A stretch of 64,000 bases of DNA from Pseudovirgaria hyperparasitica (taxonomy: Eukaryota): the NCBI GenBank assembly GCA_010093815.1, contig ML996578.1. One strand, given 5' to 3'. Every line of letters begins with the position of its first letter. Position 1 is the stretch's first letter. The translations under genes and the position numbers were made by a program. Under the pieces are notes generated by a model, which was given only the letters and a program-made list of their open reading frames with translations, was not told the DNA's origin and searched no databases. This document shows positions 34,919 through 43,663 of this stretch, piece by piece.

Positions 34919-37900
34919 TCTCTTTTATCTTGCTCCAGACTTAAAGAAACACTATGTGACTGCGTCCCAGTCTAGGGTGATTAGGAGTATATATAAAAAT
35001 GCTCCGCAACGCTTCTGGCTGCTTTGGCACTCTAAACAGCATATCACGTTGACATGCGTATACATATTCCTGTCAGCAGGGTCGACTCACCTAATTTCAC
35101 CAGTCTGCATGCAACCTTCTTCAATGGAACCTGCCTTTCCATTTCTGAGCAATCTCGGCTTGCGGCCCAACACCATGTTTCCACCCCCTTTCCTAATACG
35201 TGGCTTCAAGCATCGCATCAAGCGGTCATCTCCACTCGACATCAGACTTGCGATTTCTCATGCCACGTCTTTCTTATCGTCAGGAATTCAAGGAGGGAAC
35301 GAGACTCCCTAGGTACGCCACAGTTGGGTGCCTCGAGGATTCCATGATTAGAGATGTCGATTTGGAATCTAGAACTCACTTCGGGTTGCCATGGTGGCCA
35401 TGGTTGCATGCTGGGCCGTCCGAACGGATCGAATGATCGAACCATGTATGCATGATCGAGAACTATCTATGACGGGACCATTGTCGTGCTTGAGACACTT
35501 TGTATGCCTAGCTCGGTACGGATTGGTACAACGAGACATGGACGACGAGACAATAATACTACGCAATACAATCACAGGAACCCGTGAAAACCACGCAAAC
35601 GTCAGCATCGAAGCAGAATCCACGTCTGTGCCTACGCCATGTGTAACCAGCCTTGACTTTAAAGCATTGTATACCTCTTGGCCAGCCGTTACTATTAGAA
35701 GGAATTAGAGTAAGTACTAAGGACCTTAATTGTTAGCAGATAAATACGAATCGACTGAGCTCGCATGTTCTCCCGGGCATATACGACCTCAATGACATGT
35801 GCTTTATATAAATTATATTGGCTTTGTGACGTATCGACTATGAGTGTTCCTGTGTAACGATCTGCTGCACATGCAGCGCTGTGTAGTTCGTGTTCGATAC
35901 AGCTTGTTCCCATTTCTTTCAAATTTCCAGAGTACCAGTGGTAATTTATTCCGTACTCTGTGTTCCGATACAGTGTAACACAAATCCGACTACCACCAAA
36001 GGCGGCCGCTCCGCATTTAGCTTCGATACTATCGCAGTCTGCAGTAGACACGAACGCCTGCTCAGGCGGTCTTACATAGCCCGTCACATGTGAAAGACGT
36101 ATTTGCCCTCAATTTGGAGTGTTGGTTGTGTTGGCGTAGAAATCCGCCTTACCAGTAGAGAGGCGTGCGAATGACACCCAAGCGATGCAGAGATAATAGG
36201 TGGACCATGCCGGACACAAGCATTTTGGAAACATGGTTCAAGGAAAGAGCCTTGCATTCGCCCCCGCAAATGACCGGTCGACCGGTGTTGGGTTGGAGAT
36301 CCAGGCGACGATGCATCAAATATGGGAATGCTATCCCCTGTCCCACAGCCTACCCAAGACAAAACATTGTCGGAAGCCCCCCAAAAGGCCCATGCAGATA
36401 GCCAAGGCAGTGCCAGTCGTGTCATAAGGGTAGCCTCCTTCAATAATCTAAACTTGGACCCGGCATGTCCACAAATCGTGACGCCTGCCCAGGATCCATT
36501 GAAGTCGCGACCGCATGCCTCAGGAGCCAATGTCTCACTCGCTCCGGGGGAGAGGCCACCGGGCACAACCACGCTTCCACTCCGACGAACTCATGTTCGC
36601 CGCCCAACCACGTTGTGGCAAGGATCAACGTTGGTCCCGTATAAGGTGAGTTCTGACGACTCGGCCAATAGCTTGGCTCAGCACAGTTACGGACCGCGAA
36701 TACGGCCACCCATAGCGGATCCTTCATATGATCTGGATTTGTGTATTGGCATGTATCAGGAGCTAATTTAGGCTCGTGTCGAAGCTGCTGGAGCCTATGT
36801 TGCTGCGTGCCTACAATTGGATTGACCTGGTCACCGGTGAATGAAATGTTTGATCAGCGAGTGATAGTTGTCCTTTGCAGTGCAGTTCCAATTGACGCTT
36901 TCGTGAAGCTGCCCCCTGCCTCGACCTATTATTCATCACCCACTCGCTGAGGTGTTCTCCTGATCGGGGGCATGACAAGGCGTATCATGGCATCATGGAT
37001 TCTGGACAACATACGCGGATTACGAGTCTCATGAATGAACCTGGGCGATGGAGGCAGACAGAGAACAACCCCCAAAAAAACCTACACGTCAGCTCGGCTG
37101 TTTCCCTCTCCCCCTGGCTCATCTCTAGATATATCCCACGAACCAGTCGCAGAACCGACTTGTTCTGACATCCAAGGCACCAGCAGGATCATAGCCCGCA
37201 CGTACGGTCGATAGCACGTTTTATGGATCCCGGCTCGGTGCCTGCAGCGTGCATATATGCAGTGGACACATTAGAGCTGGGTGAGCGTGGGGTACCACAA
37301 AGACGGAACCTAAGTGGACCATAACACTCGAACCGGAAATGTAAGCTTCTGGTAAGTCATCCCGACAACACACGTTAGCAAAGTTTGGTCCGTAAATGCA
37401 GGCCACAGGCCCGCAGCAAGGCTGTGTAGATGTGGATTATAACGTCTTGTGCTGAGAAACATGCGGGTGGGGCGTAATGTAGGGGTTGGAGTGTGAGGCT
37501 AGTGTCAGCCCACGTTGTACCCTTGTCAGAGTCGCGGGTATGAAAGCCAATCACAGAGAATAATGCGCTTATAATCCAAAGAAAAATTTTGCGGGCTCTA
37601 TTTTAAGATCGTGACTCTATCAAACGGTGATTGGTTGGTGGCTCGAGGGCCGAGGGGAGTCTGCTTTTACAATTGCTGCGTTGGGGATTACGAAGATAAG
37701 ATTATCGGATCATAAGGAGTTGGTAATGTGGTATCCTATCCCGCGCAACTGACTTGCCAGCTTCATTATACATACTGAGAGAGAGAAGGATACGCGGTCA
37801 CGCTGTTTCTGCGCAGCCTCACCTCGAAGTCTCGACTTTGCGCCTCGCAGCCTCAAGGTCACGCCACTATCACAGGAATGCTGCACGCTCCACAAGATGA

Positions 37901-39570
37901 GGCTGGATAGTGAGCAGGAATTGAATGCGATATGACAACAACCACGCAGCTGGAGCCTTGATGTAAGCGGGGCTCTATCAGGGTGGGCATCTCCCACATA
38001 GATCGTCATGGAGCATGGTACATATCTGCAGGTACCAGATGTGACCGTTACATGCACCTGAAAAATAGCTTTTGCCGGATGCGGTGTGCTGAAATTAGGA
38101 GACTCTATCTGTTGCACTGGTGTGAATTTAGGTGCGCAGGTAGAGCTTTGTTGCATAGCTGAGAAGCAAGATTCGTGAGAATGCTTATTGGAAAAGTGGG
38201 AGGTGTGTAATAGGAGTAATGGAGTTGTGGTGTGTGATGCCATGCACAGTGGGATGTGACGTCGTGCGCAGACTGATCAACTGTTTGAGGCTTGGAGAGC
38301 ACGAGAAAAGTGTCGGAGTCACGCAATAATGACTGACCATCGTCAAGGCCGAATGTGATGCTGAGTGAGTGGGAGAGTGAGGGAAGAGATACAGTAAGCT
38401 TCTAGAAGGAGTGCATTGTCGGCGCTGGAGGCACTGAGGACGTTACGCAAGCCTGACCACAGCGCTGCAGCTGCAAATACTTTGTTTGGAAAAACTCGGG
38501 TGGGACGGCAGTCTGGTCTGGTATAGTTGTACTAATCAACAGACAAACTATCGGGCGATGGAGAGGGATCCTACTAAGCAGAGACGTCGAAGAAAATACA
38601 TCGAATCACGAGGTGACCATGATGGTGGACTGGACAAGGAAGGACATGAGATGGATGACTCGAGCACCGATGACTGTGAAAAAGAGTGCGTTCCAACGTC
38701 TGACCGACCCTATGTGATTAAGTCGCCGAGATGCAACTGCGCAGTCTGTCTGTTATGATGTTCGGGAGGCTTGCATTCGGGCGAAACACAATGGATGACT
38801 ATTATTGCGATGGTGCTGGGAGCACACACTCAAAGCATCATTATGAAGGTCCAACTCATCGTATCATCCCTGACTGTGAAAGGTGCATAGATAGACATAA
38901 GAGTGATTGGAATAGACCCTTGTCCGCCTTGTCGCCTGAACCATGGGATACATTCCTCGTGTGCTTTCATTGTTGATCGTTAGTCTTCATGTGGTGCGCG
39001 ATTCCACGAATAATAACGTTCTAGCCCAGCACCGTGGATTGGGGGCCCGCGTTGCGCTATACGAGTATCTCCCGCCCGCAAACGCGATCAATGGGACGCA
39101 GCATTATTGGGTCGTTGCAGCACTTCCTCGTCCTATCCATGCTGCTGTGGATCTTGAATCATTATGTGCTCACCACTTGCTGCCCGCTTCGTGTAATATG
39201 TCATTATAAGTCTATTCTTCGAATGTCTTTCTCGCCGAGGCCACTCTTTAGCTCTGGCGGCCTCCAAGGGTGAAGCAGCCACACTGCCCATTCAGGCATT
39301 ATAGGGAACTGCGGTACTACACTGTCTACCCTGTCTTTCAAGGCACTTGGTCACTGCACACGGTCTAACAAACGGACCAAAAGACAGCCCCCCTAGGAGC
39401 AGGAAAACAGGTTGGACAAGAACATGCTTGCTGAGCGATCACGAATGATGCCGCGGGCTTTGATAATCGGCTGGACCAAGATAGAAACAAATGCTGGGAC
39501 AGCCGTTGCGAGTTGTGGGTGACAGAGGACAGATAAGATGCTCTCATGTAAGCAGGCAGGTACTGTGATA

Positions 39571-40881
39571 CTTGGCGGCTGTTTCGTGCGGGTGTGGACC
39601 GTTTATGTCGTTAGTTAATGTTGTGTGGCTGGGGAGAGAGCGAACATGAGGCGTCACACCATCTTCCTATGGATGGATCATCTTGTCTGCCGACAAACCA
39701 CCTAGGTTGAAATCTGCCAAGGCCAAACACTCGATATAATCTATACTTTCGTGTTTGGTGTATCAAGCGTGCAAAGTTTAGACAATGCGCGCGAAAGTGT
39801 ATGCTCTGCGCAGTCTGCGTGCTTCATTGAATTCTCAGCCGTGTGCTCGCAGGAACTCACGCTACAAAGGCAAGCCGCCCTGGTATTCGCAGCGCAAGGC
39901 TTCAGACGGTGTGAGTTTCCATGCAGGGCAGAGGTGGGATGAGTAAGTAGTCAGGGCCCACTGCCAGCTGCCTTCGCCCACGGGCGCTGGCAGTGCGATC
40001 TCGACCGTTGACGATGATGGCATGGCGTTTGTGCGGGGGTTTCGCAGTGCAGACAAAGCTGAAATGGCCCACCTACAAGGGAGAAGAAGCCGCCAGAGAG
40101 TGATGTTGCGCTGCTGCATGCGTAGAGAACCGTTGCCAAGGGCCTCTGATCAAGTCTGACTGTGCAAAGATCCGGGCGTATCTCTTTACCTTTACTTATG
40201 CCCCGTTTCGTATGCGCCGGGGGGCAGTGACTCGGTGATGGACCTGCTCTTCGGCAATGAAGGGTCGCAAGAGATGAGTCAAGTGCGATACTGCACGATG
40301 AATGGACGACTGTCAAAGAAACATTACGAGTGTTTCTGACGTTGGGAACGGTCGTGCGCAACGCTGTAAACGCAAGGTGGGATGGACCGGACTTGGTAAT
40401 CTGGAATGGGGGAGGGGGGGAGGGGGGTGGCAGACTTTGGGGTGGGTGAACGCTCGTGGTAGATGCCAGGATAGATGCAGAGCCAAACCAGGGTAAGGTT
40501 GGTCCGTGAGGCCTGCGCAGCACAGCTTTCTTCAGCATCGCTCTCACTCACATAGCAATCATTTTGCCTATCATGTTAGTATAAAGGAGCCAGGCGGACC
40601 GTCCCTAGGGTTTCCTTTTGACCCAGTATCTACCACCCGCGTCATCTTTCCAGTGTTCCATTTCATCTCATTTGTCTGTTCGGAATTTTCTCCTTACAAA
40701 CATTCGATAGACGACCATATCGACCAGTACAAATCGAATTCTTTCGCGCATCTTCCATACTGCATTTCTCAGCAAAGAGTTACCCTGCTTTGACATCTCG
40801 TATAAGCTTCTGCTCTGCGTCCTATTAAATCGATAACGCGTCAACCTTTCTGCTCCACATCGCAACCTAGAGGCCGCCAGG
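39571..40881 (+). promoter_or_regulatory. Putative promoter of the micro-ORF locus: TATAAA 40580-40585, G-tracts/STRE 40408-40446, six GCCARG sites
   Basis: TATAAA is followed by a pyrimidine-rich, ATG-free leader. AGGGG occurs at 40413 and 40421. GCCARG occurs at 39571 (minus), 39716, 40135, 40465, 40589 and 40876. Confidence 0.5.
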
Positions 40882-41003
40882 CAGCAAGTCATACTCAACC
40901 AGTCATCGCTCTATCTTATTTCTTCCACCGAGTTCAAGCCATCTATTTTTCCAAGAATCTGTTCACTCACACTTATTTCACCGAAACATCTCAATCCGCT
41001 ACT

Positions 41004-41027
41004 ATGGGTCGCGACGGTTACAACTAA
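41004..41027 (+). CDS. Micro-ORF 1, MGRDGYN* (7 aa)
   Basis: ATG GGT CGC GAC GGT TAC AAC TAA. First ATG after the TATA box, in good context (A at -3, G at +4). The peptide motif recurs twice downstream. Confidence 0.65.
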   Translation: MGRDGYN

Positions 41028-41128
41028 AGCAAACCTCTTCAGATCGTATCAGTCAATCTCCTGACCCAACTGTCTCCTCTTTGTCCCGGATCTTTCCAAG
41101 TCTGAAACCAAGTCTTTTTATCTTCCTT

Positions 41129-41272
41129 ATGGGTCGTGGCGGTTACAACAAGCTCGGATCCGAAATCACGTCTCTACGATACGCAAAACCTGTTCTGAAA
41201 TCAGAGCCTCTTTTCTGCACATCATCTCAAGTACCGCAAGTAGCACTCATGGGTCGCGACGGATACAATTAG
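41129..41272 (+). CDS. Micro-ORF 2, MGRGGYN followed by a read-through extension (47 aa, ending in the third repeat)
   Basis: ATG GGT CGT GGC GGT TAC AAC AAG..., in frame with repeat 3. Confidence 0.5.
   Translation: MGRGGYNKLGSEITSLRYAKPVLKSEPLFCTSSQVPQVALMGRDGYN
41249..41272 (+). CDS. Micro-ORF 3, MGRDGYN* (7 aa)
   Basis: ATG GGT CGC GAC GGA TAC AAT TAG. Same peptide as ORF 1, with differences only at synonymous positions. Confidence 0.6.
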   Translation: MGRDGYN

Positions 41273-41744
41273 GGCGCCGGTCGCTCAGATGAATCATGTC
41301 AATATTTTTATCGGCACATGATTACCGAGCTGCTCGACGGAAATGGGTAGCGGAACGGGACGGCCCCTGGTGGACCGTGGGAAGGGTGGGGACACCTGCG
41401 ATTGTCGGTGGCGATGATATTACGAGAGCTTATCCTTTCTGAGCGTTCAAGTTCCTTCATTCTTTTCCATGGCATAGCGAACACAACGGGCATAGCGCGG
41501 CGTTTTACTTTCCTTTTAGCATCAGTGGCGTTGGTCTGTTTTTGCTTTCGTCTCCTCTCTTTCCGCGCAAAAGTTTACTTGTTGTGATATTATAGAATCT
41601 CTTATTCAAAACGACTCCTTATTAATACGTTCCGTGCTGCTCCTCTTTCATCTCACGCTTTCATCGTTGTTTTTGCGCCTAGTTACCTTGGCAGCGTCCT
41701 TATTTTCATCGGTAGTGTCATCTTCGTAGTGAAACAAGTTGTAA

Positions 41745-43663
41745 TCATTTCCCGACGCAAAACCTAACAGAGAGATTCAGTGCTACCCTCTCAGACATGC
41801 ACTAACAACTCACCTCTCAAACACTACGCCAAGGACATCTTCGACGTCTCCACTATCGCCTCTGCCATTAATCCGGGCTAAACAACCAGCAGCAGCACGC
41901 AAACTCTCGGCTGCGACAACAATGTCTACTTCGTCCGAGTGGTGATGTGTTATCCCTCGTGATTCGGTAGGTAATGCCAAGATCATGAAATCATCTAGGT
42001 GTGTTAGACATTCCTCCAGCAGGAGTCTATGGCGTTCAGTAGCTCCCAAAGATTCGTTCCACATCGACTCATCATCAGCCTCTGCATCAGCGTCTGTCAG
42101 TGCGCTTGTCATGTCCCGTAAAACTGCTATGAGGCCCTTGAGAAACGCACTGATGGCGCCGGGATCATTTTCAGATACCTGTGGCTTTGTAGCTTCAGTG
42201 CAAGAGATGAAATGAATTCTTTCATCTGGAATCGGTAACGCATCTTGGACAACCCTTCGAAGATTGCTTTGTTCCGCCATTGGAAATGAAGAGGACAGGC
42301 GATCAGCTTTGTTTATTACTGCCAAAACCTGTGAGCCATTATTGATGCACTCGCGAGCTGTCTCCTGGACTTCGCCGTCTATGATGAGCTGAGGCGCTCC
42401 TAGTGCTCCTATCTCGATGGCGCAGACTACCAAGACAACATCTGACTCTAGCGCACGTTGCTTCGCGCGCTTGATACCTTCTCTTTCAACAGCGCCTACG
42501 ACGTCCGTATGCTGGGCTATTGATGGTGTTTCCTGGGTAGATCCCGCTCCATGATGCAAATTCTGTGGTGTTCGTAGCCCGGCCATGTCTCCGATCTTAC
42601 AAAACCAACCACCCAGATCGAGGCCAACTTCGACTACATCCCTGGTTGTGCCTGCTTCAGAACTTACGATTGCAGCATCTCGGCCAACGATACAATTCAG
42701 TAGCGAGCTCTTTCCTACATTGGGAGCACCCAGGAGAGCTAAGCTAATTCCGTTCCGAAGTAATTCTCCACGAACTGCATTCGCTCTGTGAAGGTCAATC
42801 TGCTGTCTAAGAACCCATATTTTTTGAGCGACGGATACAGCAAGATCATTCGGCGATTCGTCAAAATGTTGATCCTCTGAGAAATCGATAAGTGCTTCTA
42901 GCTCTCCACGGGCATACAATAGTAGATGTCGCCAGCTCTCGTATCGCTTAGCCAAACTGCTTGTCGTGCCGCGTAGGGCAATTCGGGCTTGCTGTTCAGT
43001 CGTTGCAGTAAGGACATCTCCAAGAGCCTCGACTTGGATAAGATCAAGTCGGTTGTTGAGAAAGGCTCGTCGTGTGAACTCCCCTGGCTCTGCATATCGC
43101 ACACAGCGACTTGATTTGGAGATAGCCGCAAGTACTGACTTTACAATTGCTGGTCCGCCATGAGTATGGAGCTCTAATACGTCCTCTCCGGTCACAGTTC
43201 TAGGACCTGGAAAAAATAGAACCAATGCTCCTGAGTCGAGGACAGTCTCGGGAGATGCTGAAAGATTGGGGGTATAGAGTGCTCTGAGAGTAGCTATCCG
43301 AGGTTTTGGTGTAGACTTTCCAGGACAAAGCGACCTGTATATCTAGAGCATCCTTTGTCAGAAATATGGCCTTTTAGCTTTGAGATGCGCAGCGCCTACC
43401 TCGACACAGGCAGGCCCAGATATACGAATAACAGCTATCGCAGCTTTCCCAGAAGCCGTAGAGAGAGCATATATTGTTGGTGGGTAAACCGGCGGTGTCG
43501 TGGCTGAGGCTGCGAAAACATGATCTCTCAATGGTACTGCACTAGCATGGAGACGCTGCAAGCGCCCATGGTTGGGTGCTGACTTCGACCAGCAGGGCAG
43601 TTTCTTTGGTGTACGAGGGCAAGCTGTGGCAAATGATAAACAGATTGAGAACAATACTTTCAT
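41745..43663 (-). CDS. MSS1: Mitochondrial tRNA modification GTPase MnmE/TrmE (GTPBP3)
   Basis: TIYALSTASGKAAIAVIRISG, FPGPRTVTGEDVLELHTHGG, AEPGEFTRRAF, G1 GAPNVGKSS, GTTRD, DMAG and NKAD. Terminal FCVGK* follows the last intron. Confidence 0.95.

Follow-up and report, generated by a model that had tools for sequence, protein, structure and literature searches.

A candidate polycistronic micropeptide gene convergent with MSS1 in filamentous ascomycetes

An array of MGR(D/G)GYN micro-ORFs next to MSS1

The window analyzed here is a stretch of 64,000 nucleotides of contig ML996578.1 (assembly GCA_010093815.1) from the Dothideomycete Pseudovirgaria hyperparasitica. The 64-kb window contains exactly three matches to ATGGGNMGNGRNGGNTAYAAY, all on the + strand, which start at 41004, 41129 and 41249 with a start-to-start spacing of 125 and 120 nt, whereas the pattern matches in none of 100 dinucleotide-preserving shuffles of the window. 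Each match follows the codon pattern ATG-GGN-CGN-GRN-GGN-TAY-AAY, and the three units are real. Both the pattern scan with its shuffles and a listing of all ATGs agree with the first-pass annotation of this DNA, which had described three ATGs opening MGR(D/G)GYN at these spacings as the only + strand ATGs between 40576 and 41272.

The first unit is a micro-ORF of its own (41004-41027, + strand; MGRDGYN-TAA), with the start context gctactATGG and a purine after the stop codon. It is followed by an unconserved intercistronic spacer of 101 nt without any ATG (41028-41128, + strand). Codon comparison confirmed that units 1 and 3 encode the same peptide, MGRDGYN, and differ only by the synonymous changes GGT/GGA and AAC/AAT and in the stop codon (TAA/TAG), and that unit 2 has a synonymous CGT codon and a single D-to-G change yielding MGRGGYN. 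The claim of three separate 7-aa ORFs, however, does not hold. Unit 2 has no stop codon of its own, AAC being followed by AAG, and its frame stays open for 40 codons and, 120 nt being divisible by three, reaches unit 3 in phase. The resulting ORF 2 (41129-41272, + strand) encodes 47 aa, consisting of unit 2 (MGRGGYN), an unconserved 33-residue linker and unit 3 (MGRDGYN) ahead of TAG; unit 3 is nested within it as a 7-codon frame with its own ATG (41249-41272, + strand; MGRDGYN-TAG). The array in the window thus comprises two stop-delimited ORFs of 7 and 47 aa and one nested 7-aa frame; units 2 and 3 share a frame, and unit 1 is in another. The repeat family is only 23 nt long and the flanks of the units are dissimilar, as had been noted of the spacers.

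Upstream of unit 1 lies a putative 5′ leader (40574-41003, + strand) that is free of ATGs and poor in G (C+T-rich; GC skew of -0.23 to -0.43). It contains a TATAAA at 40580-40585, in line with the TATAAA previously placed upstream of the array. The preceding + strand ATG is at 40573, and those following the array are at 41289, 41296, 41318 and 41343. The ATG-free run before unit 1 measures 431 nt from start to start, and no such run on the + strand of the window is longer. The absence of ATGs reported earlier for the leader therefore stands, but its significance is weaker than it seemed: the same strand has other ATG-free runs of 424 and 409 nt in the window, and when the 426-nt leader is shuffled 2000 times with its dinucleotides preserved, the mean is 2.75 ATGs and 4% of the shuffles have none. 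In the three taxa that bear the array (described below), no other ATG occurs between the units or in the 250 nt before the first unit (zero observed in each, compared to 2.97, 1.91 and 1.63 expected; P = 0.03, 0.10 and 0.16). The depletion of ATGs is only modest after allowing for composition.

The 3′ part of the transcribed stretch (41273-41744, + strand) is unconserved and faces or overlaps the 3′ end of MSS1. It contains a T-rich tract (41440-41740) and a 48-aa ORF (41296-41442) that matches no family. No long + strand ORF was found after the array in the window, and the ORF list together with the mapping of MSS1 corroborates the earlier description of a convergent MSS1 with no long + strand ORF in between. 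MSS1 (41745-43663, - strand) encodes a mitochondrial MnmE/TrmE-type tRNA-modification GTPase with the Pfam domains TrmE_N and MnmE_helical. It has two introns (41764-41813 and 43343-43399), and its last micro-exon (41745-41762) encodes only FCVGK and the stop codon (41745-41747).

RNA-derived contigs of the same species cover the array, in agreement with transcription of the locus, although they are unstranded. Contig X3 covers 40574-41761 and contig X4 covers 40825-41761, both from one sample of one study; the kind of run is unrecorded, and they are called RNA-derived since they skip canonical introns that are kept in the DNA runs X1 and X2. The introns of MSS1 and MAK16 are skipped in X3 and X4, whereas no splice joint occurs in 40574-41761, and no convincing splice donor was seen by eye inside the units. 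Splicing of the array into a longer CDS was rejected on the RNA in hand. One RNA contig (40574-43674) runs from the array through the entire MSS1 mRNA, and because of this merging with a convergent mRNA the contig itself settles neither the strand nor the separateness of the transcript. The contig ends at 40574 (X3) and 40825 (X4) are not to be equated with transcript ends, nor a two-gene contig with one transcript, and the thin RNA cover at 37000-40340 is not readable as silence. A long minus-strand 3′UTR of MSS1 would give the same RNA picture.

Syntenic arrays and peptide-level conservation

Metagenome contigs were scanned with a two-unit pattern that fixes the first and second codon positions, by which diverged arrays would be missed, and four loci were retrieved (L001 to L004). 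Three of them (L001, L003 and L004) have arrays of MGRGGYN-stop ORFs at the same MSS1-adjacent place. They represent two taxa, as L001 and L004 differ at only 3 of 4138 bases, and these two are the only taxa besides that of the window in which the array has been found. The same pattern gave zero matches in a prokaryote genome collection. The fourth locus, L002, was rejected as a relative: it is a 129-nt tandem DNA repeat with identical flanks, 42% GC, no stop after the motif and no MSS1.

Searches with tblastn and tblastx demonstrated that MSS1 is downstream of the array and convergent with it in all three taxa. The FCVGK-stop micro-exon is present in the window, L001 and L003, and the distance to it from the last unit is 472, 826 and 407 nt in the three taxa. 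Compared to that of the window, the C-terminal half of MSS1 shares 49% identity in L001 and 36% in L003; the best named matches of the L003 MSS1 are from Eurotiomycetes (50-56%). The adjacency of MAK16 (protein P0054) and MSS1 is apparently kept in the contig of L001 too, whose length equals that of the longest contig recorded for this protein (34133). Comparison of the three transcribed regions by tblastx and blastn-short, with the flanks of the relatives covered over 2 kb at most, aligned nothing but the units. Other fungi thus have comparable arrays at the syntenic position, in which conservation extends to the peptide but not to the DNA.

Several features of these arrays are not imposed by the search pattern. 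L003 has a third full unit 195 nt upstream, in addition to an ATG-less in-frame unit (KGRGGYN-stop) that closes a two-unit ORF of 19 aa, MGRGGYN-GPRLQK-GRGGYN-stop. Of the six units in L001 and L003, five run directly into a stop codon (TAA or TGA). The base after the stop is a purine in each of the seven distinct ORFs. All seven begin with MGRxGYN and finish with GRxGYN-stop. The gaps from a stop to the next ATG are 101 nt in the window and 97, 98 and 171 nt in the relatives, and the number of units per locus varies from two to four.

Codons were compared over nine units, all of which read (M/K)GR(G/D)GYN. Five of the six third codon positions are variable, compared to two of the 12 first or second positions (Fisher p = 0.013), and the pairwise codon differences comprise 96 synonymous and 14 non-synonymous ones, the latter all being the D/G change; this synonymous-only signal is partly built in by the search pattern, which fixes the first and second codon positions. 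The arginine is spelled CGC, CGT or AGA. An ATG precedes eight of the nine units, and every ORF is closed by a stop codon, with three spellings in use. All remaining frames of the two strands are unconserved, interrupted by stops, or both. Coding on the minus strand was rejected, as the in-register frame is unconserved and a partly conserved frame has stops in three of eight units. Judged from the codons, it is the amino-acid rather than the nucleotide sequence of the short ORF that is conserved, as in conserved-peptide uORFs.

Comparison with known short-ORF and repeat-peptide systems

The layout of the array resembles that of the arthropod gene tarsal-less/polished rice/mille-pattes, as the first-pass annotation had suggested. 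Both the array and tarsal-less, as described in the tarsal-less paper (PMC1852585), correspond to a non-coding-looking RNA without a long ORF, which has several very short ORFs for the same core peptide, each with an ATG and a stop, except that unit 2 in the window lacks a stop. The copy number varies between species, from 2 to 4 in the fungal array and from 2 to 11 in tarsal-less (PMC1852585). The same account puts the inter-ORF range for reinitiation at 40-200 bp when the preceding ORF is far below 35 aa in length, and within this range the fungal gaps of 97-171 nt fall (PMC1852585). In addition, both systems have a longer ORF at the 3′ end of the array (47 or 19 aa in the fungi, compared to the 32-aa ORF “AA” of tarsal-less), and in both the downstream ORF is weakly conserved or unconserved and probably irrelevant (PMC1852585).

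Despite this similar architecture, the two systems differ in several respects. The fungal ORFs have 7 codons and tarsal-less ORFs 11, the hosts being fungi and arthropods, respectively; the 11-aa peptides of tarsal-less were called the shortest functional ORFs of their time by the authors (PMC1852585). Translation and function were demonstrated for tarsal-less (PMC1852585), whereas for the fungal array both are predictions. The conserved convergent MSS1 neighbourhood has no tarsal-less counterpart, and the peptides themselves, MGR[G/D]GYN in fungi and the LDPTGXY core in tarsal-less, are unrelated (PMC1852585). None of the nine (M/K)GR(G/D)GYN units has the LDPTGXY core that defines the tarsal-less family. 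What the array shares with that family is the set of several same-peptide short ORFs 40-200 bp apart without a long ORF, here of 7 instead of 11 codons and placed on one RNA by unstranded contigs.

Very short cis-acting uORFs with conserved peptides exist, including the fungal arginine attenuator peptide (arg-2/CPA1) and the hexapeptide uORF of mammalian S-adenosylmethionine decarboxylase. Like these, the array has very short ORFs in which the peptide and not the DNA is conserved, with the conserved residues just before the stop. However, conserved-peptide uORFs usually occur as one copy before a conserved main ORF, whereas the fungal array has two to four copies and no such ORF downstream by tblastx, blastn-short and Pfam, the downstream ORF of L001 being without relatives. 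The GCN4/cpcA-type leaders are similar in having very short ORFs about 100-200 nt apart in a long leader, an arrangement suited to reinitiation. The uORF peptides of GCN4-type genes are not known to be conserved in sequence, and the leaders precede a large ORF for a conserved transcription factor; neither holds for the fungal array.

KEX2-processed precursors, such as those of alpha-pheromone or dikaritin-type RiPPs, also repeat the same short peptide within one fungal gene. They consist of a single long ORF with a signal peptide and dibasic sites between the repeats, whereas the units described here are separate ORFs with their own starts and stops, in different frames in the case of unit 1 compared to units 2 and 3. 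The ORF translations have neither a signal peptide nor KR sites, as previously stated, and the units do not form one long ORF.

A proposed micropeptide gene and its alternatives

Based on the observed units, the conservation at the peptide level, the MSS1 synteny, the RNA cover and the absence of splicing, we consider the array a candidate for an unannotated, stand-alone + strand polycistronic micropeptide gene conserved across classes of Pezizomycotina, a reading to which we give an even chance; beyond these observations, we infer which strand the RNA comes from, that the units are translated with reinitiation, and that the peptide acts in trans. The initial proposal of an unannotated gene making 7-aa peptides is supported by the syntenic arrays, the RNA cover and the lack of splicing, and qualified by the fusion of unit 2 to unit 3.

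We propose that such a gene would produce an unspliced RNA of ~1.1 kb starting near 40574-40650. The 40S subunits would scan the AUG-less leader of about 400 nt, and the first 7-codon ORF (MGR[G/D]GYN) would be translated first. Because this ORF is so short, the 40S subunits might stay on the mRNA, scan on and reinitiate ~100 nt downstream at the next unit, and weaker start contexts at the later units would also allow leaky scanning. Several copies of the heptapeptide would thus come from each mRNA, and later removal of the initiator Met could shorten them to GR(G/D)GYN. The peptide would be the selected product, acting in trans on some target, and the two-unit ORFs (47 aa in the window and 19 aa in L003) would be tolerated variants with one unit at each terminus.

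In its boldest form, which we put at somewhat less than an even chance, the proposal is that an ancient gene common to at least two classes of filamentous ascomycetes stands alone and makes nothing but several copies of a 7-residue peptide (6 residues without Met), by reinitiation on a polycistronic mRNA, and that this peptide serves as a regulator or signal in trans. If so, no shorter conserved product of a stand-alone coding gene would be known in eukaryotes, and the gene would be the first of the tarsal-less type outside animals. A free peptide of 6-7 residues, smaller than the 11-aa peptides of tarsal-less, should nevertheless be short-lived in the cytosol, and a cis-acting nascent peptide would account just as well for the position of GRxGYN directly before the stop.

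Such a cassette for peptide-dependent translational control in cis is, in our view, unlikely, yet it deserves serious consideration. The nascent GRxGYN at the peptidyl-transferase centre would stall or modulate termination, and thereby determine how stable the RNA is, how many ribosomes it carries or how they reinitiate downstream, with a possible effect on the overlapping 3′ end of MSS1 or on a weak downstream ORF. It would account for GR(G/D)GYN just before the stop, and the purine after it, in seven of seven distinct ORFs, as well as for fused ORFs that keep the frame, such that a unit sits at the stop again, including the ATG-less unit of L003. However, the N-terminal units of both fused ORFs are also intact, which a termination stall does not need, and no conserved main ORF is present to be regulated. 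Moreover, two to four copies per RNA follow the pattern of dosage amplification seen in tarsal-less (PMC1852585). A role at MSS1 would agree with the convergent neighbourhood, which holds at an MSS1 identity of 36-49%, and with RNA contigs that are continuous from the array into MSS1; the apparent MAK16-MSS1 adjacency in L001, by contrast, suggests that the neighbourhood may be plain conserved synteny.

It is improbable that the units are uORFs of a fast-evolving or lineage-specific main ORF, for which the candidates would be those of 48 aa in the window, 38 or 117 aa in L001 and 102 aa in L003. Some ATG-started ORF does follow the array at each locus, and GCN4-type genes have multi-uORF leaders with similar spacing. 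Nevertheless, these downstream ORFs have neither mutual similarity nor a Pfam family. The 117-aa ORF of L001 has no relative among 1.84 billion representatives: of its two matches, one is the gene call of the metagenome itself and the other spans 25 residues (E = 2.6e-4). Neither the 47-aa nor the 48-aa ORF of the window has an identical sequence in a collection of 15 billion proteins. An invariant uORF peptide across classes combined with a wholly unconserved regulated protein would also be odd. The lack of a conserved downstream ORF in the three loci bears out the earlier view that the units are unlikely to be uORFs of a main gene.

Still less probable is an untranslated nucleic-acid element, in which the units would be repeated protein sites in a long minus-strand 3′UTR of MSS1, or a DNA or RNA motif of a non-coding RNA, with an incidental ATG...stop framing. 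The joining of MSS1 and the array in one RNA contig makes a 1.17-kb MSS1 3′UTR possible, and UGUA, the core of PUF-protein sites, occurs on the opposite strand of every unit; mRNAs for mitochondrial proteins, as MSS1 is, are often under PUF control in yeasts. PUF sites were rejected all the same: the PUF consensus continues from UGUA into an A/U-rich 3′ half, whereas in the minus-strand units UUGUA leads into (A/U)CC and G/C-rich bases, and the variation follows the codon phase of the + strand. Variation at third codon positions of this strand argues against an untranslated element in general, as do the switch between CGN and AGA, which changes two bases and keeps the arginine, the ATG before eight of nine units, the stops in three spellings that close every ORF, and the minus-strand frames that are unconserved or interrupted by stops (three of eight units). 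A search of Rfam 15 with window positions 40300-41900 (E <= 1) retrieved nothing but a 21-bit sR11 match inside MSS1, and the Rfam searches of L001 and L003 gave no relevant match. RNA folding z-scores of +1.74 (window), -2.02 (L001) and +1.54 (L003) have no consistent excess and speak neither for nor against structure. Chance or a recent functionless local DNA duplication, suggested by the shortness of the units and by L002, which is just such a tandem-repeat artefact, has a negligible probability in view of the zero matches in 100 shuffles and in the prokaryote collection, the unrelated flanks, and the syntenic recurrence of the units at 36-49% identity of the MSS1 C-terminal half.

If the micropeptide gene is real, fungal genomes would hold a class of genes that is invisible to annotation pipelines, the ORFs being 24 nt in length, and the polycistronic-micropeptide architecture, so far established in arthropods, would extend to fungi. 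The peptide would have stayed letter-perfect over a span in which the housekeeping enzyme encoded next to it fell to 36-49% identity in its C-terminal half, and the lower limit for conserved eukaryotic coding sequences would move from 11 to 7 codons. The array, being tiny, offers a clean and readily tested case for trans-acting micropeptides or for nascent-peptide control coupled to termination, and a simple regular expression could trace it across hundreds of sequenced Pezizomycotina. A full-text literature search found no description of MGRDGYN, GRDGYN or MGRGGYN as ORF products, and a topic search found no fungal polycistronic micropeptide gene. The hexapeptide GRGGYN also occurs within the nuclear-import signal (PY-NLS) of yeast Hrp1, a six-residue match in an RGG-rich segment that could easily arise by chance.

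Seven-codon units of the window and their surroundings

A pattern scan of the whole 64 kb with ATG-GGN-MGN-GRN-GGN-TAY-AAY revealed exactly three matches on the + strand, at 41004 (unit 1), 41129 (unit 2) and 41249 (unit 3), with no further match on either strand in the rest of the window, and none in 100 dinucleotide-preserving shuffles. The repeat spans just 23 nt, and its three copies have unrelated flanks, which bears out the short unit and dissimilar spacers described in the first-pass annotation. Units 1 and 3 both encode MGRDGYN, differ only in the codons GGT/GGA and AAC/AAT, and end in TAA and TAG, respectively. Unit 2 encodes MGRGGYN and has no stop of its own, its AAC being followed by AAG. 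As units 2 and 3 are spaced 120 nt apart, the frame of unit 2 stays open for 40 codons, up to the TAG of unit 3. The unit-bearing ORFs of the window, all on the + strand, are therefore a 7-aa ORF (unit 1, 41004-41027), a 47-aa ORF with one unit at each end (41129-41272) and a nested 7-aa frame (unit 3, starting at 41249). Thus, of the three micro-ORFs first reported, all three units are present but unit 2 is fused in frame to unit 3; with this one correction, the observation is real.

Within 40576-41272, the + strand has no ATG besides those of the three units, and the next one is at 41289. The ATG-free run before unit 1 does exist; at 431 nt it exceeds every other on the + strand of the window, but two others reach 424 and 409 nt, and a leader without ATG arises in 4% of dinucleotide shuffles. 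The stretch is also G-poor, and taken alone it is a modest signal. A tract at 40408-40430, with runs of 5-7 G interrupted by a single A or T, is located ~150 nt upstream of both TATAAA and the point where cover by RNA contigs begins, and could be a G-quadruplex or promoter element.

The host is a Dothideomycete of the order Acrospermales. Downstream of the array, MSS1, a mitochondrial MnmE/TrmE-type tRNA-modification GTPase, converges from the minus strand as previously noted, with the Pfam domains TrmE_N and MnmE_helical, and MAK16 follows on the + strand, its ORF sharing 100% identity with the NCBI MAK16 protein of Pseudovirgaria hyperparasitica. The last micro-exon of MSS1 (41745-41762), 472 nt from the last unit, codes for FCVGK-stop alone after a 50-nt intron (41764-41813, minus strand). 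On the other side, 37000-40340 has only short and thin RNA contigs, and its ORFs (at most 195 aa, minus strand) do not resemble genes.

Syntenic arrays in other fungi

Searching for a full unit, 85-115 nt and a second unit specified through the first two bases of the Tyr codon yielded four loci in the metagenome contig collection and none in the prokaryote genome collection. Two of them, L001 and L004, represent one taxon; they are identical but for 3 of 4138 bases, none within the array, which consists of two MGRGGYN-TAA ORFs 121 nt apart. L003, from another taxon, has MGRGGYN-TGA, then 195 nt on MGRGGYN-TAA, and a further 122 nt on a 19-aa ORF, MGRGGYN-GPRLQK-GRGGYN-TGA; its first Arg codon is AGA. 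The fourth locus, a 2.4-kb contig of 42% GC whose motif reads MGREGYN, was rejected as a relative: it is a tandem DNA repeat of 129 nt in which the flanks of the motif are identical too, it lacks both stops and MSS1, and it looks like a repeat within a longer coding sequence from some unrelated organism.

In L001/L004 and in L003, an MSS1 orthologue lies downstream and convergent, its C-terminal half sharing 49% (L001) and 36% (L003) identity with that of the window. The FCVGK-stop micro-exon is 826 nt (L001) and 407 nt (L003) from the last unit; the implied last introns are far longer than in the window, about 250 and 520 nt, respectively. The upstream neighbour of the window array shows no conservation with either locus. 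The best named matches of L003 MSS1 are Eurotiomycetes (Endocarpon, Aspergillus, Penicillium and Exophiala; 50-56%), and the closest proteins to P0054, a MAK16 protein tentatively linked to L001, are from Pleosporales (84-88%). These matches place arrays in at least two Dothideomycetes orders, given the tentative link, and in a lineage nearest Eurotiomycetes. Comparable arrays, syntenic with MSS1 and keeping the peptide, thus occur in other fungi, as the initial reading had anticipated. Start-to-start spacing is 120-125 nt in four of five intervals across the three very divergent taxa, with unalignable spacers. In all three taxa, the 250 nt ahead of the first unit and the gaps between units are free of further ATGs, against 2.97, 1.91 and 1.63 expected (P = 0.03, 0.10 and 0.16). 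The first units of the window and of L003 carry A at -3, the favoured start context in fungi, and some later units C or T.

Among nine units, third codon positions vary at 5/6 sites vs 2/12 for first and second positions (Fisher one-sided p = 0.013). Pairwise codon differences comprise 96 synonymous and 14 non-synonymous ones, all 14 being D/G at codon 4, a near absence of replacements that is partly built in because the search pattern fixed first and second positions. Arg is encoded by CGC, CGT or AGA. Several features lie outside the pattern requirement: the third full unit and the ATG-less in-frame unit of L003, the final codon and a half of every second unit, the stop immediately after 5/6 metagenome units, the purine after the stop in 7/7 ORFs, and the synteny with MSS1. 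All seven distinct ORFs start with MGRxGYN and end with GRxGYN-stop. No other frame on either strand is both open and conserved: of the minus frames, the in-register one varies and the one sharing third positions has stops in 3/8 units. Moreover, among the transcribed regions of the window, L001 and L003, alignments by tblastx and blastn-short are confined to the units. Together with the third-position variation, this agrees with the original proposal that the peptide, not the DNA, is conserved.

RNA across the array

Four public runs of the species contain the stretch; two (X1 and X2) have the behaviour of genomic DNA, and the other two (X3 and X4, from one sample of one study) that of RNA assemblies. 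The contigs of X3 and X4 skip two MSS1 introns (CT..AC ends) and one MAK16 intron (GT..AG ends) that are not skipped in X1 and X2, and are hence taken as RNA-derived. A single X3 contig covers 40574-41761, 41812-43342 and 43400-43674, and a single X4 contig covers 40825-41761 and continues to 43713, neither with a joint inside the array region. The array is therefore present in RNA, and these assemblies show no splicing that would join it to a longer CDS, in agreement with what had been supposed. The stretch proposed to be transcribed is covered by these contigs, but they are unstranded and join the array to the whole MSS1 mRNA, and they fit overlapping convergent transcripts and a 1.17-kb MSS1 3'UTR equally well. 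The micropeptide-gene reading came through all three tests run against it, on relatives, RNA cover and splicing.

A candidate polycistronic micropeptide gene and its alternatives

With tarsal-less/polished rice, the arthropod polycistronic smORF gene, the array shares several tiny ORFs, one conserved peptide, RNA of non-coding appearance, variable copy number, spacing suited to reinitiation and a longer ORF at the array end. In contrast to that gene, the array lacks the LDPTGXY core, has units of 7 rather than 11 codons and resides in fungi. It is not a tarsal-less family member, so the suggested resemblance holds for the architecture. Nor is it a repeat precursor of the KEX2 type, a distinction already drawn, because the ORFs are separate and have no signal peptide or KR sites. 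Full-text searches of the open literature returned no paper for MGRDGYN, GRDGYN or MGRGGYN; GRGGYN is part of the PY-type nuclear-import signal of yeast Hrp1, at most a lead. Topic searches of the open literature found no fungal polycistronic micropeptide gene, and the main-text passages of a survey of conserved sORFs in fungi, published in 2019, do not use the word polycistronic. The novelty would be a tarsal-less-like architecture with an unrelated, shorter predicted peptide in another kingdom.

We give an even chance to a stand-alone polycistronic micropeptide gene whose peptide acts in trans. Scanning through the AUG-free leader would lead to translation of the first, 7-codon ORF, and renewed scanning to reinitiation at the next unit; leaky scanning may contribute, since some later units have C or T at -3, where A is favoured. 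The stop-to-ATG gaps of 101, 97, 98 and 171 nt fall within the 40-200 bp range stated by Galindo et al. (PMC1852585) for reinitiation after ORFs much shorter than 35 aa. Several copies per RNA would increase the peptide yield, the interpretation that Galindo et al. give of the tarsal-less repeats.

The main rival, possible though rather doubtful, is a cis-acting nascent chain, in which GRxGYN would govern what becomes of the array RNA and perhaps of the MSS1 3' end that overlaps it; in its favour, a conserved GRxGYN immediately precedes every stop.

It is improbable that the units are uORFs of an unconserved main ORF. In every locus, ATGs resume past the array and at least one ORF follows (window, 48 aa; L001, 38 and 117 aa; L003, 102 aa), but these ORFs share no similarity and match no Pfam family. 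Among 1.84 billion representatives, the 117-aa ORF matched nothing but the prokaryote-style gene call of its own contig and a single stretch of 25 residues (E = 2.6e-4). A conserved main ORF is thus absent, and the units are not usual conserved-peptide uORFs, in line with the earlier view. The exact sequences of the 47-aa and 48-aa ORFs of the window are absent from a 15-billion-protein collection; the latter (41296-41442, + strand) directly follows the array and lacks a counterpart in both L001 and L003. In the protein collection, P0243, a 182-aa gene call at L001 2129-2677 whose length would put its start at a GTG inside the second micro-ORF, is a miscall of the prokaryote style and conceals the L001 array.

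An untranslated element, including sites in the MSS1 3'UTR, is very improbable in view of the variation in codon phase and the ATG/stop framing of the units; RNA folding (z = +1.74, -2.02 and +1.54 for the three loci) gives no guidance either way, and no Rfam family matched the array. Chance is practically negligible, given the empty shuffles and prokaryote genomes and the MSS1-syntenic arrays at 36-49% MSS1 C-terminal identity.
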